NCBI GenBank assembly: GCA_033763315.1
Contig: JANRKS010000012.1
Location: forward strand, 1-44,539
Source: Deltaproteobacteria bacterium
GTDB lineage: Bacteria; Myxococcota_A; Polyangia; Fen-1088
Direction of reading: 5' to 3'
DNA: 44,539 nt
Shown: in pieces, positions 9,097 to 28,885 of the stretch
How the letters are laid out: every line of letters begins with the position of its first letter
Position numbering within the stretch: the stretch's first letter is position 1
Translations under genes and position numbers: made by a program
The notes under the pieces: model-generated
Seen by the model: only the letters and a program-made list of their open reading frames with translations
Databases searched by the model: none
Told to the model about the DNA's origin: nothing

Positions 9097-10524
9097 ATGG
9101 CCCTCGAAAAACCTCCCACGTTCATCAATTTGTTCGCCGGAGGAGGGGGGATGCTCCTAGGCCTTGAGCGAGCGGGCTTCAAGTGCGTTGGCGTCGCCGA
9201 ACACGATCAGGCGGCATCGGCAACGCTTGCCCTCCACCTTAAGGAAAAGGTGTGCGAACATCTGCTTGCGCTTGGCCCAAAAAGCGGTGACGTGCGGCGA
9301 CTCAACTTCACAGAGTGGCGAAGTGCTCTCGAAGCCAGTGGTGTACGGCAGCTGGATCTGCTGGCGGGAGGACCACCGTGTCAGTCGTTCTCTAGGGTCG
9401 GGCGAGGCAAGTTGAATGCCCTCACGGATACCGGCTTTCTGGGCGACGAACGAAACCGCCTGTGGAAAGTCTTCTTCCAAGCCGTCGACAAACTTCGCCC
9501 CCGTATGTTTCTTATCGAGAACGTACCAGGCATGCTTCACCACGGCGGTGTAAACGTGGCGGATCTCATCTGCCGTGCTGGCGCTCGACTCGGGTACATT
9601 ACCCGATGTGCGATCTTGAACGCGGGGGCCTTCGGAGTGCCACAGCTCCGTGAACGCCTCTTCATCGTCGGCATTGAGGCCAAGGCGGGCACGGTGCCTT
9701 CGCTGCCCACTGGCACGCGTTCCGTCCGTCTCGGTCGCTCCCACATCGGCCGTCAAAAGGCCCTATCGAATCTCTTTAGCGACCCAGCGTCCTTCGTTGG
9801 CTGTCTTCTGCCACAAAGTAGCTCTCCCCCTGCGCTCAGCGTTGAACAGGCACTTCGGGATTTGCCGATGCATCTGGAACATCTTCAACCCTCCTACCGC
9901 GCAAGGGTACCGTGCCCACCGCGCCCGTATGGCCCCTGTTCCCCTTCGGAATATGGACGTGCGATGCGGGACTGGCCTGGCCTACCAAAATCCGGAGCGG
10001 CAACAGATCATGTATGTAAAGCCACTCCGCGCGACTATCGCACTTTTGCAGTCATGCGCCCCGGCGACCGTTACCCCGAGGCAGTCGCTATCGCGGAACG
10101 GAGATATACCATCGCGCTCCGCAGGTGGCTAAAGACGAACCGCGCTGGCACGCGGCCACGCCGTTTGGACTTTGTGCCACCGTACCGGCTCGACACATTT
10201 CCAGAAAAGTGGCGCAAACTGATACAGACCGAACCGTCCTGGACCATTACCGCCCATTTGGCGAAGGATACATACTCGCACATCCACTACGACTCGTTGC
10301 AAGCAAGAATGATTACCGTGCGCGAGGCAGCGCGGCTTCAAAGCTTCCCCGATTCCTACGTTATTGTCGGCAATATCGGAGACAAGCTTCGGCAGATCGG
10401 AAATGCTGTTCCCCCCCTGCTAGCCGCGGGCATTGGGGCACACTTACTTGCGATCCTTTCGCACGACCTTCCCTCCCGTGGTGAACTCTCCTTTGCATTG
10501 GGCCGTACAGCATCTCGGGGCTGA
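9097..10524 (+). CDS. DNA (cytosine-5)-methyltransferase, probable DrmMII of the adjacent DISARM-like locus
   Basis: C5-MTase motifs in order: LFAGGGG (I), GGPPCQSFS (IV), ENVPG (VI), QLRERLFIVG (VIII), RMITVREAARLQSFP (IX), GNAVPP (X). Confidence 0.93.
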   Translation: MALEKPPTFINLFAGGGGMLLGLERAGFKCVGVAEHDQAASATLALHLKEKVCEHLLALGPKSGDVRRLNFTEWRSALEASGVRQLDLLAGGPPCQSFSRVGRGKLNALTDTGFLGDERNRLWKVFFQAVDKLRPRMFLIENVPGMLHHGGVNVADLICRAGARLGYITRCAILNAGAFGVPQLRERLFIVGIEAKAGTVPSLPTGTRSVRLGRSHIGRQKALSNLFSDPASFVGCLLPQSSSPPALSVEQALRDLPMHLEHLQPSYRARVPCPPRPYGPCSPSEYGRAMRDWPGLPKSGAATDHVCKATPRDYRTFAVMRPGDRYPEAVAIAERRYTIALRRWLKTNRAGTRPRRLDFVPPYRLDTFPEKWRKLIQTEPSWTITAHLAKDTYSHIHYDSLQARMITVREAARLQSFPDSYVIVGNIGDKLRQIGNAVPPLLAAGIGAHLLAILSHDLPSRGELSFALGRTASRG

Positions 10525-10795: not shown

Positions 10796-11855
10796 TCAAC
10801 GTCGCGTTGCCCGGTAGCTATCCAGCAACTGCGCGACGGCGGGTTTCCCCGCGGCCAGTGCGGCCTGCGAAGGTGTGAGGCCCGCTTCCTCCTTCGCCGT
10901 CCGATCGGCTCCTGCGGCCAGCAACATTCTAACCTTGTTAACGGATCCGCTCGCCGCCGCATAGTGCAGCGCCGTTTTTCCCCCGGGCCCGCGTGCATCA
11001 ACATTCGCTCCATGGTTGATGAGCGCTTGCATGCGATCAACGGTGTTGCCCTTATCCCCCCGGTGCAAGATACACAAGTGGCGGAAAGCCGCTGGTGCCG
11101 ACGCGATCAACAGGCACCCCGTGATTGAGAAGCCACTGGGTGGTAACAGGATCACGCGCAGCCACAAAGACGCTGCTGTCAGCTGCCATGGGATCCGCCC
11201 CGCGTGTGAGCAGCAGGTCCAACAGGTCCACTCGGCCCAGTCCCGACGCCACGTGGAATAGTTGGGCGCTGTAGCTTCTTATGTCGGCGCCTGCATCAAG
11301 CAGCTGTTCGGTCACGTCATGATGCCCACCCGCAACGGCAAAGGTAAGTGGTGGGGTGAAATAGATTTCGTTGTCCTCGTCATCAGCGTTTAGCAGACGA
11401 GGGTTATCGACCAGCAGACGCTTCACCCTAGGGCCATCACCCAGGAACGCCGCCTGGAAGATGTTGTGGGGCCGCGTGCGCGTCTTAAGGAATGCGGCGA
11501 CAGTCGGCCGCTTGTAGTGAATGGCGGCGCACATCGGTGACAGCTGCACCAACGTCTCGCTGTTGTAGCATCCGGTGACCTCAGCGTCGGCGCCCGCATC
11601 CAGAAGAAGCTTTACGTTCGCCAGGTTCCCTGCGCGTGTCGCTTCCCACAAAAGCGTACGACCGTGATTGCCGCGCTTGTTCAGATATTCAGTGTTTGCT
11701 TTTAGCAAGGCCTTCAGTGTTTGAACCGTTCCCTTCGAAGCGATAGCGAGGCATTTGGTCGGAAGCTGCTTCTTCCAATGCCCGGGCGGCACGTTCAGCG
11801 CGCGGACCCAGCGCCGATCGGCCTGTCTTTCGTCACGATGCTCCACCATGTTCAT
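10796..11855 (-). pseudogene. Ankyrin-repeat protein split by a 1-nt frameshift (or a sequencing error)
   Basis: ORF 11052-11855 (GRTLLWEA..GN...VKLLLDAGAD) continues in another frame as RGDKGN...GKTALHYAA..G....VRMLLAAGAD. The shift is at the C6 run 11056-11061, and removing one base restores one ORF. Confidence 0.85.
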
Positions 11856-12283: not shown

Positions 12284-12304
12284 GGTTCGCTCGTCTGGCT
12301 CATA

Positions 12305-12994
12305 CTACCAACGTATCGACATAGGCAGTGTAGGCTCAAAGCTTGTCGCTTCTCCAGACACGCCATCATCCCACTGCAATTCAAGGTGTGGCTCTGCAGC
12401 GCCTGCTTGAACCTGGATCAGACCACGTTCCACAAACCAACGAAATCCTGAAGAGCGAGCCGACTTTCCCGGCGGAAGTTGCATTTGGAAATGCGTCAGT
12501 TTTCTCGGCCGCCCGCCGTGCTGTGGCAACCCGCCACGGTTCTCTTCCCACGTTCGTGGCGCGGTACCCCAGGTCCCGATAAAGATCAACGGTTCGTCAA
12601 ACCTTCCCGGTGGCGTGACGATAGGCATCGACATTCCGCGCGGCAAGTAGGCGGCCTCGTAGGCCCATGTCTCGAACGGAAGCGTCTTGGGATCAACCTT
12701 GGCTGATGCGCCCGCCATCGGGCGAAAACAAAAGCCAAAAGGGCACGCTCCCGGGGACTGCCAATTGATTCGCTCGTAAAGGCCAAGAGGGGCGACAAGG
12801 TCGGAACGTATTTCGCCTTTATCGGCTTGGTAAAGAAGCTCCAGAAAAGCATTCTCAAACACCGCGCACGCGTTTCGCGTTCCCTGCCCTCGATGCTCTC
12901 GGTGAACGGAAAACGCGATTCCAAAAGTGCGCAGAGCAAGTTCGGATGCCTCTGCATCGGGCGCGCCGATCAAGATATGATCCAGTTCAAACAT
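12305..12994 (-). CDS. VOC/glyoxalase-like (Glyoxalase_3-type) protein
   Basis: ELDHILI...HRGQGTRN...FENAFLELL pattern, with RBS GGAAGG upstream of the ATG. Confidence 0.8.
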   Translation of the reverse strand: MFELDHILIGAPDAEASELALRTFGIAFSVHREHRGQGTRNACAVFENAFLELLYQADKGEIRSDLVAPLGLYERINWQSPGACPFGFCFRPMAGASAKVDPKTLPFETWAYEAAYLPRGMSMPIVTPPGRFDEPLIFIGTWGTAPRTWEENRGGLPQHGGRPRKLTHFQMQLPPGKSARSSGFRWFVERGLIQVQAGAAEPHLELQWDDGVSGEATSFEPTLPMSIRW

Positions 12995-13082
12995 GAGAAC
13001 CTTCCGTCTAACGTATCACGTTCGGCTTCAGCGCCCGCTCGCGACTAAGACGAGCCGTGCACGCATCACACGGGCTGATCTC

Positions 13083-13183
13083 GGTGGAAGAAGTCTCCCT
13101 TGCTGCGGGCAGGAGACGCCCCAGCGCGCTCTACCGCCGAGGATGCCCTCGGGCTGCGGGCTATGTAAGCCTCACGGGCAGCG
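13083..13183 (-). ncRNA. Putative structured leader RNA, copy 1
   Basis: ~85% identical to 15262-15361. The minus strand has stems GCTGC/GCAGC, GGCT/AGCC, CCGAGG/CCTCGG and GTCTCC/GGAGAC. It ends ~90 nt upstream of the VOC gene ATG. Confidence 0.55.
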
Positions 13184-13292
13184 AGTAAGGGTGGCCACTT
13201 GCGGAGCGCCGGTGTTATCGACTACGTCAACGATGCCATGTGGCGGTACTTGGCAAGGCTGCCTGGGAAGCACATCGCAATCAATGAATGTG

Positions 13293-13580
13293 CTACTCGG
13301 CACGTTTCGGCCGGACCACAAGGCTCGTCTGCAGTCCCGCACGATCGGCCATTTCCACCAGTGCGTCGAGCGAGAACAAATTCAGTCGCCCACGCATCAA
13401 GTCTGATATGCGAGGCTGAGTAACGCCAAGCAGATGGGCGGCTTTGGATTGCGTAAGCTTGCGCGCCCGCAGTTTTTCGATCACCTCGTTCGCGACCAAC
13501 GCTCGCAGCTTCAGGCTTGCGGCCTCATAAGTGGAATCTTCAATGGCAGCCCACACAGAAGAAAAGCGTTTTGAACTCAT
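13293..13580 (-). CDS. HigA-like XRE HTH antitoxin (orphan)
   Basis: MSSKRFSSVWAAIED...LTQSKAAHLLGVTQPRISDLMRGRLNLFSLDALV is an HTH_37/HigA-type signature. RBS AAGGAG before ATG 13580. Confidence 0.85.
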   Translation of the reverse strand: MSSKRFSSVWAAIEDSTYEAASLKLRALVANEVIEKLRARKLTQSKAAHLLGVTQPRISDLMRGRLNLFSLDALVEMADRAGLQTSLVVRPKRAE

Positions 13581-13613
13581 CCTTGTTTCTCCTTTAACCA
13601 TTGGGGGCCCGAA

Positions 13614-15182
13614 TCACTTCTCCGCTAGCCTCTGCAACAACAACCCGGCCACGTCACCCAATCCCCGAGCTGCAGCCTTCTCACCCGCCGTTTGACGCGC
13701 GCGATTCCAATGCGTCGGATCAGCGCCCGCGGCCAGCAGCACCTCTGCGACCTCGAATGCCTTCTCCTCGTCCTGGGGCAACGCGAAAAGCGGCGTCTCT
13801 TCAGGCTCCGCACTGAACCATCCAAGCCCAATGCGTTCAGCAAGTCTGTGATTGGCACGCGAGGCGTCCTCGGCAAGCAAGGCAGCGAGGCGTGTTGTTA
13901 ATCCGCCGGCAGCAAGCGTGAAGACGTCGCGGGTGTGACGGGCAAACAGTTCAATCGTCCCCGCCATCTGCGCGCGAATGGCCCAGGCCAAAGGCGTTGC
14001 ACGATGCGCTTCGTCCCGTGCGTCAACATCGGCACCGTGATCAATCAGAAATTGAGCCACATCGACGTGATTCAAACACGCGGCTTGGTGAAGCGCTCTG
14101 TAGCGTGCCGATGGACCTCCATAATCAACGTTCGGTGAGACCCCTAGAGCCAGCAAGAAGGCCGCAAGATCCTTGCGCTCGTGCTTTGCCGCCTGGTTCA
14201 CAAGCATCGCGCCACAGTCTTCAATGTATTCCGGATGAGCCAACAGTAGGCCCTCAGCCGCCGCGCGATCGAGGCGCATACACGCGGCGCGAAAGGCGTC
14301 GCGCCCGCTCAGTTGCGAGTGCGGGGCGCCGTGGCGAAGCAGCAGCTCTGCCATTTCGATGCTGCCTTCGAGCAGGGCGCGTTCGTGCAGGCTTCGCCCC
14401 GTGGCGGAATGTGGATTCGCGCCATGGGCAAGCAAGAAGGCGGCACGCTGAAGCTGGTTCATCTGCACAGCGTGCTCAAGCAAGTATGCGAATAGGTTAT
14501 TGGCATCACCGGGGGACCAGTTGATCGTGTGGTTGGCGTTGAGGCCGTGCGCCACGAGCACCCGCAGCCAGCGATCGTCATCGCCCCGAAGCATCGTGTT
14601 GTAAAGTGCCTGGCTTTGATTCGGATCAGCGCCACGGCTCAGCAGCAAGGCGGCCAAAGGCTCGGCCGCAGGATGCGGCGGGCAGGTGATAGGCCCGCTC
14701 TCACCGTCGCCGATCACTCCGCAGAGCGCGCTCCAGCGCATCGTTTGGTTCTGCCATTGATAGGTCCAGTGGCAGTTTGGATCCGCGCCGTGATCGAGCA
14801 GCGCTTGGGCAATGGCCACGGCATTGTCAGCCGCCGTCGCAATGGGCAGGCGGCCGTAGCACAGATACAACAGCGGCTCCCACCCCTCACGGCCACCTTT
14901 CGTGCATGCGCTTGATGGTGTTGCGGCCAAGATGCGATGAACCTCAGCAACATCACCGCACACCACGGCTGTATGTAGCGTCGCGCGCCCAAGGTTTGGG
15001 TGTCGTTCAAGAATGCGTGCTGCCTGCTTGCGTCGGTGCGGACCCTCAGGATAGCCCGTGCACGCGTTAGAGCCAGGCGCGACGCCATAGTGCAGGCATG
15101 CCAAATCCAGGAAATCGGCCGCCCGCTCATCGTGGCTGTCCAGGCTTGTGCGCGCGCTGATAGATCTGAACGTCGTGGACAT
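13614..15182 (-). CDS. Ankyrin-repeat protein
   Basis: Repeated LLxxGADPN, ALHQAA..NH..VAQFLIDHGADVDARD and TPLAWA motifs. Start moved to ATG 15182 (RBS GAAGGAAGG), because the extension to 15317 runs through the leader repeat. Confidence 0.88.
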   Translation of the reverse strand: MSTTFRSISARTSLDSHDERAADFLDLACLHYGVAPGSNACTGYPEGPHRRKQAARILERHPNLGRATLHTAVVCGDVAEVHRILAATPSSACTKGGREGWEPLLYLCYGRLPIATAADNAVAIAQALLDHGADPNCHWTYQWQNQTMRWSALCGVIGDGESGPITCPPHPAAEPLAALLLSRGADPNQSQALYNTMLRGDDDRWLRVLVAHGLNANHTINWSPGDANNLFAYLLEHAVQMNQLQRAAFLLAHGANPHSATGRSLHERALLEGSIEMAELLLRHGAPHSQLSGRDAFRAACMRLDRAAAEGLLLAHPEYIEDCGAMLVNQAAKHERKDLAAFLLALGVSPNVDYGGPSARYRALHQAACLNHVDVAQFLIDHGADVDARDEAHRATPLAWAIRAQMAGTIELFARHTRDVFTLAAGGLTTRLAALLAEDASRANHRLAERIGLGWFSAEPEETPLFALPQDEEKAFEVAEVLLAAGADPTHWNRARQTAGEKAAARGLGDVAGLLLQRLAEK

Positions 15183-15261
15183 AAAACCTTCCTTCGGTGG
15201 CGCCTGAAGTCCGCATCGTACAGGCAAGAAAGAAGGATCGCAGATCGCAGTGATTTGACTG

Positions 15262-15361
15262 GGTGGAAGAATCTCCCTTGCCGCGGACAGGAGGCGCCCC
15301 AACGCGCTCTGTTGCAAAGGATGCCTTTAGGCTGCCGGCTATGCAAGCCTCACGGGCAGCG
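15262..15361 (-). ncRNA. Putative structured leader RNA, copy 2
   Basis: Paralog of 13083-13183 with the same stems (GCTGCC/GGCAGC, GGCT/AGCC, AAAGG/CCTTT, CTCC/GGAG). It ends ~80 nt upstream of the ankyrin ATG. Confidence 0.55.
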
Positions 15362-15418
15362 TTGTGAGGATGACAACGGCTTGGGCCGTAGGAGCGCCTC
15401 CAAAGGGGGGCGCTGGTG

Positions 15419-15712
15419 TTATCGACTACGCCACGCGCCGGGCTTTCGCCGCAAATGCAAGACCGCAAGGATGATCACAGCCTCGTCAGTGACGACAAAG
15501 TAGCCGCCGTAAGGAAAACGGCCGTGGATGGCGCGCCTGACTCTTCGGTCAATTTCCTGATAGGCCATGGGGTTCCTGTGAATGCGATTGATCAACAGGC
15601 GCATCCCTTCCACGAACTCCCCACCCAACCCGGCTTCCTGATCCTCGTACCAAGCTGCCGCCGAATCGATATCAGTTTCGACTTGAGGTCGAACAAGCAG
15701 TCGCCGCGTCAC
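15419..15712 (-). CDS. RelE/ParE-family type II toxin
   Basis: 97 aa; DIDSAAAWYEDQEAGLGGEF...I..NP....RRA..GRFPY..YF....VIILAVLHLRRKP. 4-bp overlap with the antitoxin. Confidence 0.88.
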   Translation of the reverse strand: MTRRLLVRPQVETDIDSAAAWYEDQEAGLGGEFVEGMRLLINRIHRNPMAYQEIDRRVRRAIHGRFPYGGYFVVTDEAVIILAVLHLRRKPGAWRSR

Positions 15713-15951
15713 TTTGCACGCTGGTACCGGTCGCGAAGCCGACTATACACGGATGACCAATCCTCGGCGGTGGCCGGATCAGCGTCGCTCTCTGCCAACC
15801 TTTGCTGCAGGATCTCGTGATGCCACTGGGGCACGGCTGCGGCTTGCATTCCGGTTGTAGCCCGCGTTAGGAGTTCTTGAGCGTATTCAAGTTGCTCTTC
15901 TGGCGACATTTGCTCGAAGCCGGCAGGAGGCATGGCAGCAGGATGACCCAT
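15709..15951 (-). CDS. Addiction-module antitoxin (Unstab_antitox-like)
   Basis: 80 aa; MSPEEQLEYAQEL...VPQWHHEILQQRLAE...W..V..RL, directly upstream of the toxin. Confidence 0.85.
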   Translation of the reverse strand: MGHPAAMPPAGFEQMSPEEQLEYAQELLTRATTGMQAAAVPQWHHEILQQRLAESDADPATAEDWSSVYSRLRDRYQRAK

Positions 15952-15986
15952 CTAAATATTATACCTGCACCAATGCGGCCCATCCA
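15952..15986 (-). promoter_or_regulatory. Sigma70-like promoter of the TA operon, possibly leaderless
   Basis: Minus strand TGGATG-N17-TATAAT-N6-ATG, with no SD sequence before the ATG. Confidence 0.5.
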
Positions 15987-16063: not shown

Positions 16064-16948
16064 TCAGCCGCCCAGGCGGCGCACCCAGCCCATGATGTCT
16101 TTTCCAACGGCGGCGCCCAATTCATTTTCGACATAGAATCGGATCGATCGCTCTTGCGCGGCGCTAAGGCCAGCCGCTTGCAACGTGCCCGACAGAGCAC
16201 GCCGTCTTGCGGGGCAGCCATCCGAACTTGAAGGCGCGCGGCTCATGCGGTGCCAGCGCAGCAGTTCCCAGGTGACGGGGCCTGCCGGTGCGTGCGCCGA
16301 CAATCGATCGATGAGACCGCGTAGGCCTTTTGCAGATAGGTCCTTAAGTTGAGGGGCGGCGCTTTTGGGGCACGCGTAGACGCGCCTTTGGCGCTTGGAG
16401 CTGAATTCGGGTGGATCCACCTCACTTTCACAGGAAAGAAACACCTGCGTGGTCGGCCACAAGATGCGCGCTCCTGGACGAGGCTCGCTGGCAACAATTG
16501 TGTGGTTCCACGTGGGCCAGTAAAGGCCCGCATTCGGAACGCCCCACGCGCACACAAACTCGGTCATCCACGCACTTAGCTCATCGCATTCACCGACGAG
16601 TGGCTCGCCTGACGTCAACGCGTCCCACAACGCCTTGGATGAAGGCTCGCGGTCGGTGATGCTCCAACGGGCACCGAACCACCCGCCATCGCGCGTGGCT
16701 TCAAAAGCCAACCGCAGAATGCGGTATTGGGAGAACGGAAATGTCTTGTCGTCTAAGCGGTGCCTCGCCTGTAGCTGCTGATGCTCCGTTCGCAGCTCCA
16801 CGGTGTCAACGGTGGAGGCAACGGCATCAAGGGCAGTGATCAAAGGCGCCAGCGCCGAGCGAGGCGCGCCAAAGGCGGCGGTGCCGCACGCAAGGAATGC
16901 AGTCGCTGCGACCAATCTAAAGAGCACGCTCGGCAACTTCATTCTCAT
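16064..16948 (-). CDS. Secreted hypothetical protein, possible transglutaminase-like Cys/His fold
   Basis: Signal peptide MRMKLPSVLFRLVAATAFLACG from ATG 16948; GECDELS...WPTWNHT motif. Confidence 0.6.
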   Translation of the reverse strand: MRMKLPSVLFRLVAATAFLACGTAAFGAPRSALAPLITALDAVASTVDTVELRTEHQQLQARHRLDDKTFPFSQYRILRLAFEATRDGGWFGARWSITDREPSSKALWDALTSGEPLVGECDELSAWMTEFVCAWGVPNAGLYWPTWNHTIVASEPRPGARILWPTTQVFLSCESEVDPPEFSSKRQRRVYACPKSAAPQLKDLSAKGLRGLIDRLSAHAPAGPVTWELLRWHRMSRAPSSSDGCPARRRALSGTLQAAGLSAAQERSIRFYVENELGAAVGKDIMGWVRRLGG

Positions 16949-17085
16949 CGTAGTCCATAATATAGGCCCGTACGACCGATGACGGTGCGCAATCCAGCTT
17001 TTGACGTCGCCTTCACGCGGAGATACTGCATCGCCATGAACACGTCGCGGGCGAAGATCGGCATTCTGGAATGCCTCATGCTGTT
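16891..17085. repeat. Diverged repeat A1 (divergent intergenic region plus two gene 5' ends); partner 27460-27656
   Basis: Direct alignment by eye, roughly 85% identical over ~195 bp. Confidence 0.9.
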
Positions 17086-17113
17086 GTATCGTGGCGCTTA
17101 AAGAGGGGTCGAG

Positions 17114-17641
17114 ATGAAGAATTTTAGAAGACTTTCCGTATTGTCCGCGCTGGTTGCCTTCTTTCTTAATCCGGGCTTCGGCTGTGGTCAGAGCGACGAC
17201 TTTGAGTTCCACGAAGAAGAAATGCGCGCGGCCGCACTAGGCAAATGGCGTGTCACGAACGACTCGATTGACGTTTCGATAGAGTTGTTTGCATCTCGCG
17301 GCTCCGCGTCCGCCTCTAGACGACTCGGGCTCGTACGCTCAGCGCATGCCTGTGGAAGCCGCGAATTCCTTCGCAGCGCAGATGCATGCCTCGAACGTTC
17401 AGTCTTAACCTTTGACGTTCGAACGATAGATGGCAGCACGCTCAATGGCATGAAGGCCCAAGGAACAGGGGAATTCGAGATTTACGGCCGAAGTCTCACA
17501 CCAGGTCGCATTTCGCTTTCGTTTAGCAACGGTGTGGAGATGAGCATTTACATGGTGGAAAAGTCGGGCGGCAGCTTTACCGGAACGATGGGTGGAACGG
17601 GCGTTAGCGGATTTCCTGCGATCCGAGTGCAGCGTCTGTAA
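17114..17641 (+). CDS. Hypothetical lipoprotein
   Basis: RBS GAGGGG; signal peptide ending FGFG-C; 175 aa. Confidence 0.7.
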   Translation: MKNFRRLSVLSALVAFFLNPGFGCGQSDDFEFHEEEMRAAALGKWRVTNDSIDVSIELFASRGSASASRRLGLVRSAHACGSREFLRSADACLERSVLTFDVRTIDGSTLNGMKAQGTGEFEIYGRSLTPGRISLSFSNGVEMSIYMVEKSGGSFTGTMGGTGVSGFPAIRVQRL

Positions 17642-17700
17642 AGTTGGCTCCGCCGCCCGGCAACTCGATGCTCATCCGTGCTGCGGTCCCAGCGGAGACA

Positions 17701-17848
17701 TCAAGCCAGATAGAAGATCTCATCAAGCCGCAAGAAGCCCTCGTCAGGCCGACGTCCGTCCAGATTCTCGAAAAACGGCGCCATCTGCCGTTGCCACCGT
17801 TCGTTGATCGGTTCTGCATCCATGCCCTTGAGCGCCGCCTGCAGGTCA
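17701..17848 (-). pseudogene. rhaM: 3' half of an L-rhamnose mutarotase gene (truncated second copy)
   Basis: ~90% nt identity to 28550-28697; encodes DLQAALKGMDAEPINERWQRQMAPFFENLDGRRPDEGFLRLDEIFYLA*; the 5' half is absent. Confidence 0.88.
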
Positions 17849-27316: not shown

Positions 27317-27459
27317 GTCGACAGGTCCGCAGCAAAGCCTAGGCCACTGGGGAACCAACACCGCCCACCTCCGTAGGGGAGGCCGGGGGTGTGTTCGACC
27401 GCGGCAATCCCGTCATCAGACCACGAAAATCTGAGGCATCGTAGGACCATCCCGCCTAT

Positions 27460-27656
27460 CAAGGAATGCAGCCGCTGCGACCAACCCAAAGAGCACGCTC
27501 GGCAGCCTAATTCTCATCGCGGTCTATAATACAGGCCCGTACAACCGATAACCGTGCGTAATCCGACCTTTTGATGCCGCCTTCACGCGGTGATATGGTG
27601 ATACCCATGAACACGTCGCGGGCGAAGATCGGGATTCTGGGATGCCTCATGCTGTT
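27460..27656. repeat. Diverged repeat B1; partner 16891-17085
   Basis: Contains a truncated minus-strand stub MRIRLPSVLFGLVAAAAFL (27517-27416) and the intact start of the 27607 gene. Confidence 0.9.
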
Positions 27657-28527
27657 ATTGCAGACGAGCTGCGGTGGAGGCGACGCTTCAACGGCCAGTG
27701 AGTTTGCCTCGTCATACTGCGGCTTGCTGAAGCCATGTTGCGCGATGGCGGGGCTGGCCACGGACGGCAAACAATGCGAGGCATTCATAGGCTTCTTCTC
27801 AACCGGCTACAACGCGGACAAAGGCCGTGCGTGTTTGGACGAGCTGCGAGCCAATTCTCAGAAGAGCGACTTCTGCGACTTGAACCCCACAAGCTCCGCC
27901 ACGTGCGACGGCGTTTTTACCTCCGCCAGCGGCAAGAAGAAACCTGGAGAAACTTGTGAGGATGACGATGAGTGTGCCGCCTCGGCCGAGGGCGAAGTGG
28001 ATTGCGCCACTGAATTCGTGAACAACGCGCGCATTCAAAAGTGCCAGGTACAAGTGCGCGGCAAAGAGGGCGATGGCCCCTGCACGGGAACGGTGGATGG
28101 CAGTCTCACGTCTTTTGGTGGCGCCGAATCCACGGACGTGCCCGCGAAGGCATTCCTGTGTTACGTGGCCGATGGCCTTAGTTGCTCTTCAAAAACAGGC
28201 GTGTGCACAAAGATTCAACCTATCGGTGGCGCGTGCCAAAGTTCCTTCCAATCGTATCAGTGTGTCGATGAGGCCTACTGCGATACAACGAAGATGATGT
28301 GCGTGGCAAAGCTGGCGGTGGGCGCCCCCTGCTCCTTCGTCAGCACGTGTGTTGATGCCGCCTACTGCGACGAAGCCACTGACGTTTGCGTGGCAAGACG
28401 CGCGAATGCGGCGGCCTGTGACAACGACGACCAATGCCTCTCCGACAACTGCGTGAATGGCAAGTGCGCCACAGACACAAGCGTCTCTGATTTTGGTTTG
28501 TCTTTCGTCTGCGGCGAGAAAAGCTGA
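27607..28527 (+). CDS. Cys-rich secreted lipoprotein
   Basis: MNTSRAKIGILGCLMLLLQTS-C lipoprotein signal; repeated G-x2-C-x4/5-C modules. Confidence 0.8.
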   Translation: MNTSRAKIGILGCLMLLLQTSCGGGDASTASEFASSYCGLLKPCCAMAGLATDGKQCEAFIGFFSTGYNADKGRACLDELRANSQKSDFCDLNPTSSATCDGVFTSASGKKKPGETCEDDDECAASAEGEVDCATEFVNNARIQKCQVQVRGKEGDGPCTGTVDGSLTSFGGAESTDVPAKAFLCYVADGLSCSSKTGVCTKIQPIGGACQSSFQSYQCVDEAYCDTTKMMCVAKLAVGAPCSFVSTCVDAAYCDEATDVCVARRANAAACDNDDQCLSDNCVNGKCATDTSVSDFGLSFVCGEKS

Positions 28528-28549
28528 GCGGACGGTCTGGTCGAAGACC

Positions 28550-28885
28550 TCAAGCCAGGTGAAAGATCTCGTCGAGCCGCAAAAAGCCCTCGTCAGGCCG
28601 ACGGCCGTCGAGGTTCTCGAAGAACGGCGCCATCTGCTGTTGCCAGCGTTCGTTGACCGGTTCCGCATCCATGCCCTTGAGCGCCGCCCGCAGGTCAGCT
28701 GTTTCGAAATAGCCCACCAGCAGGCCATCCGGTCGCAAGAACAGCGAATAGTTGTGCCAGCCGTGCCGGCGGAGGGCGTCGAGCATCTCGGGCCACACCT
28801 CCGCGTGGCGCTGCCGGTACTCGACCAGACGCTCACGGCGTACCTGAAGGGTAAAACAAACCCGCTCTCGTGGTGCTTGCGGCAT
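28550..28885 (-). CDS. rhaM: L-rhamnose mutarotase
   Basis: EYRQRHAEVWPEMLDAL...G.HNYSLFL...ERWQ..MAPF...LDEIFHL. Confidence 0.9.
   Translation of the reverse strand: MPQAPRERVCFTLQVRRERLVEYRQRHAEVWPEMLDALRRHGWHNYSLFLRPDGLLVGYFETADLRAALKGMDAEPVNERWQQQMAPFFENLDGRRPDEGFLRLDEIFHLA

Follow-up and report, generated by a model that had tools for sequence, protein, structure and literature searches.

The 44,539-nucleotide (nt) stretch of DNA analysed here (the window) is one entire contig of a 7.6-Mb, 40-contig genome of a deltaproteobacterium (91% complete), and it carries two copies of a non-coding element on its minus strand, one upstream of a VOC gene (copy 1) and one upstream of an ankyrin-repeat gene (copy 2). 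Each copy consists of a putative sigma-70-type promoter followed by a 5' leader of ~130 nt, and the family to which they belong is very probably a genuine, conserved structured leader. In this family the leader precedes ankyrin-repeat genes that start with a conserved helical N-terminal domain of ~70 amino acids (the N-domain, with the motif L..LKK.AK.L...D..A...P...L.DAQLVIAREYGF.SW..LK). The complete account that we put forward, namely a new leader family, its fold, the gating of translation by this fold and the N-domain as the effector, is tentative as a whole, and its parts differ in strength.

The first-pass annotation of this DNA had reported a repeat of ~85% identity in front of two unrelated genes and suggested a new cis-regulatory RNA. 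The repeat is real: the copies are 84% identical over 90 nt (13094-13183 and 15272-15361) and 85% identical over 104 nt in a whole-genome search (E 1.2e-25), where they were the only two copies in the 7.6 Mb, the 18 other listed matches all having E ≥ 0.3. As claimed, neither copy is coding and both have the orientation of the genes behind them (sense, minus strand), copy 1 ending 89 nt before the ATG at 12994 and copy 2 ending 80 nt before the ATG at 15182. The likeness goes further than was thought at first, since a 27-nt piece is also shared upstream (13203-13229 and 15407-15433, 89% identity) and the copy 2 leader reaches the start codon (15311-15180). The fold first proposed is not supported, but the idea of a cis-regulatory RNA holds, with a conserved structured leader on the mRNA strand, strong covariation among homologs, and homologs that are almost without exception directly 5' of a gene. 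It is the notion of two unrelated genes that must be given up: the family is tied to a single gene family, and the copy before a VOC gene is unique to this genome.

Fold and distribution of the leader family

A search of 89 genomes of the same taxonomic family gave two significant relatives, which matched the gene-proximal part only. When a 20-nt core was scanned against one genome per prokaryotic species, at least 119 loci were found; among the matches listed, 87 share a much longer element, and 32 others are matches in unrelated, mostly coding DNA. The long element comprises, in this order, a TTGACA box, ~17 nt, a −10-like hexamer, a few bases, AGCGCGCGCUGGGGCGCCUCCUGUCCGCGGCAAGGGAG-loop-CUCCCACCCA, a variable hairpin, then CCUUCUUCC GGCCUG .. 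AGCGGAC .. CAGGC .. GGAAGGAAGG and the start codon. A start-codon search found an open reading frame (ORF) behind 70 of the 87 long elements, all sharing one N-terminal sequence, and a Pfam scan of nine downstream proteins gave ankyrin repeats in eight and LRR in three. Pairing was counted on two alignments, a canonical one (A4, 73 rows) and a broad one (A5, 88 sequences); the searches used two covariance models, R1, built on the initial alignment of the family, and R2, which is broader.

The fold starts with a 5' hairpin (P0) whose loop pairs downstream (P1), forming an H-type pseudoknot; P1 joins the four bases before the 3' strand of P0 to the four bases after P2. A conserved joining strand, CC-N-GUCCGCGG-NAA, comes next, followed by hairpin P2 and by a variable linker or a further hairpin, P3. 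Then a strand complementary to the Shine-Dalgarno sequence (SD), the anti-SD, pairs with the ribosome-binding site, and the anti-SD:SD helix encloses hairpin P4. Finally, the P4 loop GCGGAC pairs back to GUCCGC of the joining strand, ~70 nt away (PK2). P3 was treated as a variable linker because it behaves as a hairpin in the canonical group (z −1.19) and not in the broad set (z −0.17). In the core, 13 of 26 columns hold one letter in at least 90% of the sequences.

Compensatory change supports this fold. Both alignments were fitted to nested helices by the search model, which makes their counts lean towards structure; read with this in mind, A5 (counted over P0, PK2, P2, P3, the anti-SD:SD helix and P4) has 88.9% of its cells paired versus 40-47% with the partners slid, and A4 has 91.8% versus 35-54%. 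In A5, 27 of 33 pairs are changed on both sides, with 363 such cells versus 24-69 after sliding, and the covariation score is 0.372 versus 0.159 in shuffled alignments, none of 500 shuffles reaching any of these measures. The counts for P1 and PK2 are free of that bias because pseudoknots are absent from the search model. They were made on 78 of the 88 A5 rows, the other 10 being dropped for gaps at anchor columns. P1 is paired in 89.7% of cells versus 32-59% when slid, and 58 doubly changed cells are spread over all four of its pairs (variants UGGG:CCCA, CAGG:CCUG, CGGA:UCCG, CGAG:CUCG, AAGG:CCUU, CCGG:CCGG and CAGU:ACUG). PK2 is paired in 98.5% versus 24-48%, with 19 doubly changed cells in three of six pairs (ACCCGC:GCGGGU, AUCCGC:GCGGAU and GUCUGC:GCAGAC); loci missed by the first model add UUCCGC:GCGGAA, GUUCGC:GCGAAC and GACCCAC:GUGGGUC, and RNAalifold recovered PK2 independently. 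As for the anti-SD:SD helix, 92.6% of its A5 cells are paired and six of seven pairs are changed on both sides. Frequent U.G pairs are compatible with the mRNA strand only.

The pairing proposed at first around the SD was right in kind and wrong in place. A conserved pyrimidine stretch does pair with the SD; the CTTCC that had been assigned this role is the 3' strand of hairpin P2, and the real anti-SD is CCUUCUUUC at 15236-15228, beyond the repeat as it was then delimited. The CUCC:GGAG stem also proposed is not supported, since it is paired in only 15%, 32%, 85% and 95% of the sequences at its four positions. Of the leader ending said to be common to both copies, GGAAGGTTCTCATG occurs in one, while the other, GGAAGGTTTTATG, is one base short of the pattern.

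The link with the N-domain was measured on two samples picked by protein motif alone, through degenerate DNA patterns, the RNA having no part in the choice. The first, 100 new loci with the motif EAKRWLKA, was searched with R1, and the leader was found in 73 at E ≤ 0.01. A hidden Markov model of the N-domain matched in 78 of these loci, and 73 of the 78 have the leader; the 22 loci with neither domain nor leader are chance motif matches. Among the five domain loci without a leader, one is at a contig edge, three are spurious frames and one (L190) is a real gene. The second sample used AQLVIAREYGF, a more general form of the N-domain, and comprised 120 loci from many more phyla. R1 matched in 88 of the first 100 loci at E ≤ 0.1 (81 at E ≤ 0.001); five of the 12 misses have the motif less than 235 nt from a contig end, and of the seven that remain four match R2 and one more shows the core by eye. 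With R2 matches in 17 of the last 20 loci, the leader is present in 109 of 120. All downstream proteins start with the N-domain, and 48 of 52 complete ones have ankyrin repeats. The four most diverged of the scanned multi-copy leaders all precede ankyrin genes, and the five diverged leaders inspected in the window's own family all precede N-domain genes. The other ankyrin genes of this genome have no leader. We found no conserved neighbour gene, no Pfam family occurring in more than two of 67 downstream genes.

Judged by the titles of their records, carriers occur in about 16 phyla, these labels being those of metagenome bins, some of them probably mis-binned. Those of the second sample include Acidobacteriota, Gemmatimonadota, Pseudomonadota, Myxococcota, Planctomycetota, Verrucomicrobiota, Bacteroidota, Ignavibacteria, Actinomycetota, Chloroflexota, Armatimonadota, Deinococcota, Poribacteria, Latescibacterota and Methylomirabilota, and the first sample adds Vulcanimicrobiota. 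Nitrospirillum amazonense, N. viridazoti, N. iridis, Niveispirillum lacus and Steroidobacter flavus are cultured, harmless carriers, again by record title. The number of leader copies ranges from one in each of three alphaproteobacterial or gammaproteobacterial genomes to three in a Vicinamibacterales bin and five in a Gemmatimonadaceae bin. Within the window's own family the distribution is patchy (10 of 89 genomes).

A few loci depart from the common arrangement. At L190 (2660-2950), a hairpin that resembles a terminator and has a T run stands in place of the 5' part of the leader, and the N-domain gene keeps only the 3' strand of P4 and the SD. In L021, from a relative in the same genus, the inverted repeat around the −35 region is another one (GTGGACGC..GCGTCCAC, 1560-1640), and the N-domain gene, which ends after 108 codons, may be frameshifted. 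In L022 / L089, from a relative in another genus, the 5' domain of the leader is fused straight to an SD and a GTG start, P3, anti-SD, P4 and N-domain being missing as if by one deletion. A third weak match in the window's genome (G000:C2:76632-76750, E 0.04) is not followed by an N-domain gene, and the DNA that holds it looks coding; it was taken as chance.

The presumed promoter and the two copies in the window

The distance from the start of TTGAC to the invariant CC of the joining strand is 54-56 nt in 57 of the 63 canonical loci that could be evaluated (10 of the 73 A4 rows were dropped for want of upstream sequence or anchor). The features of the two copies in the window, all on the minus strand, are listed below, beginning with copy 2.

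15407-15433, minus: upstream shared segment of copy 2, with the last codons and stop codon of ParE (89% to 13203-13229)
15341-15346, minus: −35 hexamer TTGCAT, 55 nt upstream of the invariant CC, the modal family position of TTGAC
15318-15323, minus: −10-like hexamer CATCCT, 17 nt after the −35 hexamer
15180-15311, minus: complete leader to the AUG (R1 105.5 bits, E 4e-27; R2 91.7 bits)
15307-15304:15297-15294, minus: P0
15301-15298:15263-15260, minus: P1
15288-15283:15214-15209, minus: PK2
15277-15273:15269-15265, minus: P2
15236-15228:15195-15187, minus: anti-SD and SD
15225-15221:15206-15202, minus: P4
15182-15180, minus: AUG

13203-13229, minus: ParE 3' end relic of copy 1, non-coding (89% match)
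13163-13168, minus: −35 hexamer TTACAT, in register with copy 2
13140-13145, minus: −10-like hexamer CATCCT, 17-nt spacer
12992-13133, minus: partial or chimeric leader (R1 69.9 bits, E 1e-17; R2 40.2 bits, E 2e-4)
13129-13126:13119-13116, minus: P0
13123-13120:13084-13081, minus: P1, with a G.G mismatch
13110-13105:13038-13033, minus: PK2, GCCCGC:GCGGGC, compensated
13099-13095:13090-13086, minus: P2
13076-13069:13059-13053, minus: P3
13052-13048:13009-13005, minus: closing helix, CGUCU with AGACG
13005-13000, minus: SD GGAAGG, largely unpaired
12994-12992, minus: AUG

Judging from these hexamers, transcription would start at about 15310 in copy 2 and about 13132 in copy 1, so that in the proposed scheme a sigma-70-type promoter at a fixed distance would drive a transcript beginning a few bases before P0. 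Among public sequencing runs, none with RNA was listed for 12300-15960. GGCT-TRCAT-AGCC holds the −35 hexamer, and the second hairpin of the first-pass fold has the −10 hexamer CATCCT in its loop; the two upstream hairpins of that fold therefore lie in the promoter, ahead of the presumed transcription start, and they are not conserved in the family, or indeed outside this genus. The inverted repeats themselves are present as letters (GCTGC..GCAGC around GGCT-TRCAT-AGCC, CCGAGG/CCTCGG in one copy against AAAGG/CCTTT in the other, and CTCC/GGAG). The persistence claimed for the second hairpin is borne out insofar as pairing is kept with a register shift; without the shift, one of its pairs is compensated and two are mismatched. 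A sigma-54 promoter was also considered for TGGGGCGCCTCCTGT. The sigma-54 consensus is TGGCAC-N5-TTGC, with GG and GC dinucleotides 10 bases apart, and this reading was rejected: the GC position reads GT in 86 of 87 A2 sequences, and a TTGAC −35 stands at a fixed upstream distance.

Copy 2 has every helix of the family fold and is a complete family member, though its gene has lost the N-domain. The gene behind it is 39% identical to a protein of the family (L063) from residue 39 on; its first ~16 residues are kept and ~60 residues of the N-domain are gone, which looks like an in-frame deletion. Copy 1 is of another kind. It shares its promoter, 5' half and scrap of ParE with copy 2, whose locus is therefore the probable source of this part; no relative of its 3' half turned up in the genome or among about 360 loci retrieved. 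Copy 1 is a one-off chimera, perhaps a promoter that was captured and whose leader is decaying, and its regulatory function may be lost. For the VOC gene behind it, homologs were found in only two of 88 genomes of the family, neither with a leader.

All genes flanking both copies are on the minus strand, as follows.

15951-15709, minus: ParD-like antitoxin gene (Pfam Unstab_antitox)
15712-15419, minus: ParE toxin gene, directly upstream of copy 2
13614-15182, minus: ankyrin-repeat gene of 522 amino acids (Pfam Ank), behind copy 2
13601-13293, minus: HTH_37 (antitoxin-like) gene, 12 nt behind the ankyrin gene
12994-12305, minus: Glyoxalase_3 (VOC) gene, behind copy 1, without the N-domain

The ParD-like and ParE genes share a 4-nt overlap (15419-15951, minus), and the ParE stop codon (15421-15419) falls within the 27-nt segment common to both copies. 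The HTH_37 gene has no adjoining toxin partner. Beyond the VOC gene come a cupin gene and then another ankyrin gene; the stretch 10895-11855 (minus) holds one or two ankyrin-repeat genes without the leader. A C-5 cytosine DNA methylase gene lies at 9097-10524 (plus); with it and the toxin-antitoxin genes, the region resembles an accessory island. Further up, a 382-amino-acid ORF (16064-17212, minus) belongs to no Pfam family, and a block at 16810-17848 has a paralog at 27457-28697, ~10.6-10.8 kb away, with pieces 85-96% identical. Because this cassette-like row of small genes includes toxin-antitoxin pairs, we also considered whether the repeat is an integron attC site or another intergenic DNA repeat. 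The attC sites occur in many copies between cassettes and have paired core sites at both ends; here, there are only two copies, and the conservation is strand-specific, with U.G pairs, and linked to one gene family at the level of RNA, so this reading was set aside.

Probable gating of translation and the candidate effectors

The position of the SD in the fold suggests how the leader could act. P4 would stack on the anti-SD:SD helix, while its loop would be tied to the H-type pseudoknot core, and thus the whole RNA could close over the ribosome-binding site. We propose that the knotted fold keeps this site shut and that an effector would shift the balance. Across the family, the SD stretch has a pairing probability of 0.72 and 0.76, versus 0.61 and 0.53 with the 5' part shuffled; the natural 5' part gives the higher pairing in 50 of 71 and 71 of 86 sequences. 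The leader probably gates translation in cis.

As to the effector, we tentatively favour the N-domain of the encoded protein, which by analogy with ribosomal-protein leaders could exert feedback repression on its own mRNA. It is favoured because the link between leader and domain is near one-to-one across phyla and paralogs, because no partner gene was found, because other ankyrin genes lack the leader, and because the RNA core and the protein motif AQLVIAREYGF.SW are both unusually constant. Little else is recognizable in this domain. Pfam found no family beyond Ank or LRR, NCBIfam and PADLOC gave weak generic ankyrin matches only, a sequence search of the PDB returned only designed helical bundles (E about 1e-3), and in a protein atlas the matches were to 'hypothetical protein' clusters only (0.76-0.82). 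Its AlphaFold model has four helices, with a mean pLDDT of 79.

Several observations weigh against this account, besides the fitting of the alignments and the bin labels already mentioned. Concerning the effector, no N-domain is encoded in the window's genome as assembled, at 91% completeness (best E 0.056), and neither the ankyrin gene nor the VOC gene behind the two copies encodes the presumed binding domain, and the copy 2 leader is nonetheless intact. Moreover, the N-domain model had no Foldseek match at E ≤ 0.001 and no known RNA-binding fold resembles it. Concerning the fold and the gating, the folding energies of the single copies are no better than those of shuffled sequences (z −0.10 and −0.87), and when only nested folding is allowed the SD of the window copies is less paired than in shuffles (0.39 versus 0.58; 0.42 versus 0.63). 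In addition, copy 2 can form a competing 17-bp helix of similar energy, GUCCGCGGCAAGGGAGA with UCUUUCUUGCC..GCGGAC (15209-15288, minus), which excludes P2, P4 and the anti-SD:SD helix and frees the SD: the minimum free energy is −52.9 kcal/mol, and the consensus nested fold has −38.8 kcal/mol plus about −14 for the two pseudoknot helices. It could represent the open state of a switch, or be due to chance. Finally, in copy 1 P1 contains the G.G mismatch, a near-invariant G is changed to A, P4 is not recognizable and the SD is mostly free.

The intact copy 2 in a genome without any N-domain would be more easily understood if the effector were a small molecule or an ion, which the double-pseudoknot core would bind as a riboswitch, stabilizing or releasing the helix that buries the SD. 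This is possible but rather unlikely in our view. The complexity of the fold, its 13 core positions that reach at least 93% in many phyla, its covarying pseudoknots and the SD inside a conserved helix are all what one would look for, and copy 1 keeps a compensated PK2 before the gene of a VOC-superfamily enzyme. However, the VOC association occurs only once; the leader is tied to a single protein family, with no enzyme, transporter or conserved neighbour hinting at a ligand, and its SD-burying helix is identical in kind across lineages, whereas the expression platforms of riboswitches usually vary between lineages. Should it nevertheless be correct, the leader would define a new riboswitch class, a small-molecule sensor with a double-pseudoknot aptamer occurring from Actinomycetota to Bacteroidota and switching ankyrin genes, an outcome to which we give a minority of our belief. 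The alternative, equally new, is that the modelled four-helix N-domain would be a novel RNA-binding domain recognizing the knot.

Dispensing with a dedicated effector altogether is a less probable solution still. The leader would then be a fixed throttle on translation or a stabilizing 5' structure, or temperature, a helicase, ribosomal protein S1 or some other general factor would act on it. In favour of this, the helix that buries the SD is universal, no gene was identified as a partner, and P0 lies within a few bases of the presumed 5' end, like protective 5' hairpins. But known RNA thermometers are simple hairpins of low sequence conservation, and two covarying pseudoknots with an invariant joining strand exceed what a throttle or a thermometer needs. 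In the window itself, one could also imagine that only the DNA matters, as a recently duplicated promoter whose inverted repeats at −35 and −10 would be operators, the transcribed part being functionless. The shared segment holds the promoter and the ParE 3' end relic, inverted repeats frame −35 and −10 in both copies with a different one framing −35 in the same-genus relative, and copy 1 looks degraded. Yet the conservation across phyla is in the transcribed part and not in the promoter, the compensatory changes are strand-specific, and the promoter hairpins are not conserved outside the genus; we consider this reading very improbable.

Likeness to known leaders

No Rfam 15 family matches the leader, in agreement with the novelty suggested at first. 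The whole window gave no match at the gathering threshold, and 12900-15600 gave, at E ≤ 10, only Bcj14 (E 1.1), inside the ankyrin coding sequence. Eight canonical loci gave two matches at E ≤ 1, both to microRNA models elsewhere, and eight loci from other phyla gave three, none at the leader. Among the papers that a full-text literature search listed, none ties a structured RNA to ankyrin genes and none contains the core sequence; supplements and collections outside Rfam could hold it. Structured leaders that occur in many phyla and have no entry in a library of the Rfam type are rare, and two covarying pseudoknots with an invariant core are the mark of RNAs that bind something specific. Because the leader is welded to a widespread, uncharacterized family of ankyrin proteins, it is also a handle on the biology of that family. 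If the effector is a metabolite, it would name a pathway and reveal what these proteins are for; if it is the N-domain, this domain would be an RNA-binding fold of a new type, and autogenous control would gain a new example that is not a ribosomal protein.

Close parallels are found in ribosomal-protein operons. The alpha operon leader (Rfam Alpha_RBS) is bound by S4, and the rpsO leader by S15. Like them, ours is a 5' leader of ~100-130 nt; its pseudoknotted fold takes in the ribosome-binding site, a single gene is linked to it, and the product of this gene would be the effector, acting on translation initiation. Unlike them, it has an unrelated sequence and topology, it matches no Rfam family, and its gene encodes an ankyrin-repeat protein; the presumed binding domain is absent from the window's genome. 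With the SAM-II, SAM-V, preQ1-II and preQ1-III riboswitches, it shares an H-type pseudoknot core with conserved joining nucleotides, an SD in a conserved helix and a compact leader directly before the start codon. It differs from them in being larger, in having a second, long-range pairing of a loop to a strand, and in lacking a ligand-related gene. As in the ROSE and fourU thermometers, the SD is held by a pyrimidine-rich strand with U.G pairs, whereas two covarying pseudoknots and an invariant core are found in the leader only.

Riboswitch candidates restricted to one gene have been described and were reportedly validated later: the nadA motif (NAD+-I), restricted to Acidobacteria (PMC6859854), and the folE motif (THF-II) (PMC6800512). 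The present leader resembles both in having been found by comparative analysis upstream of one gene family only. Their enzyme genes, however, named the ligand through the pathway, a clue that an ankyrin gene does not give, and the taxonomic range of the leader is far wider than that described for the nadA motif. By comparison with these systems, the leader would work as known SD-burying pseudoknot leaders do, yet it belongs to none of them.

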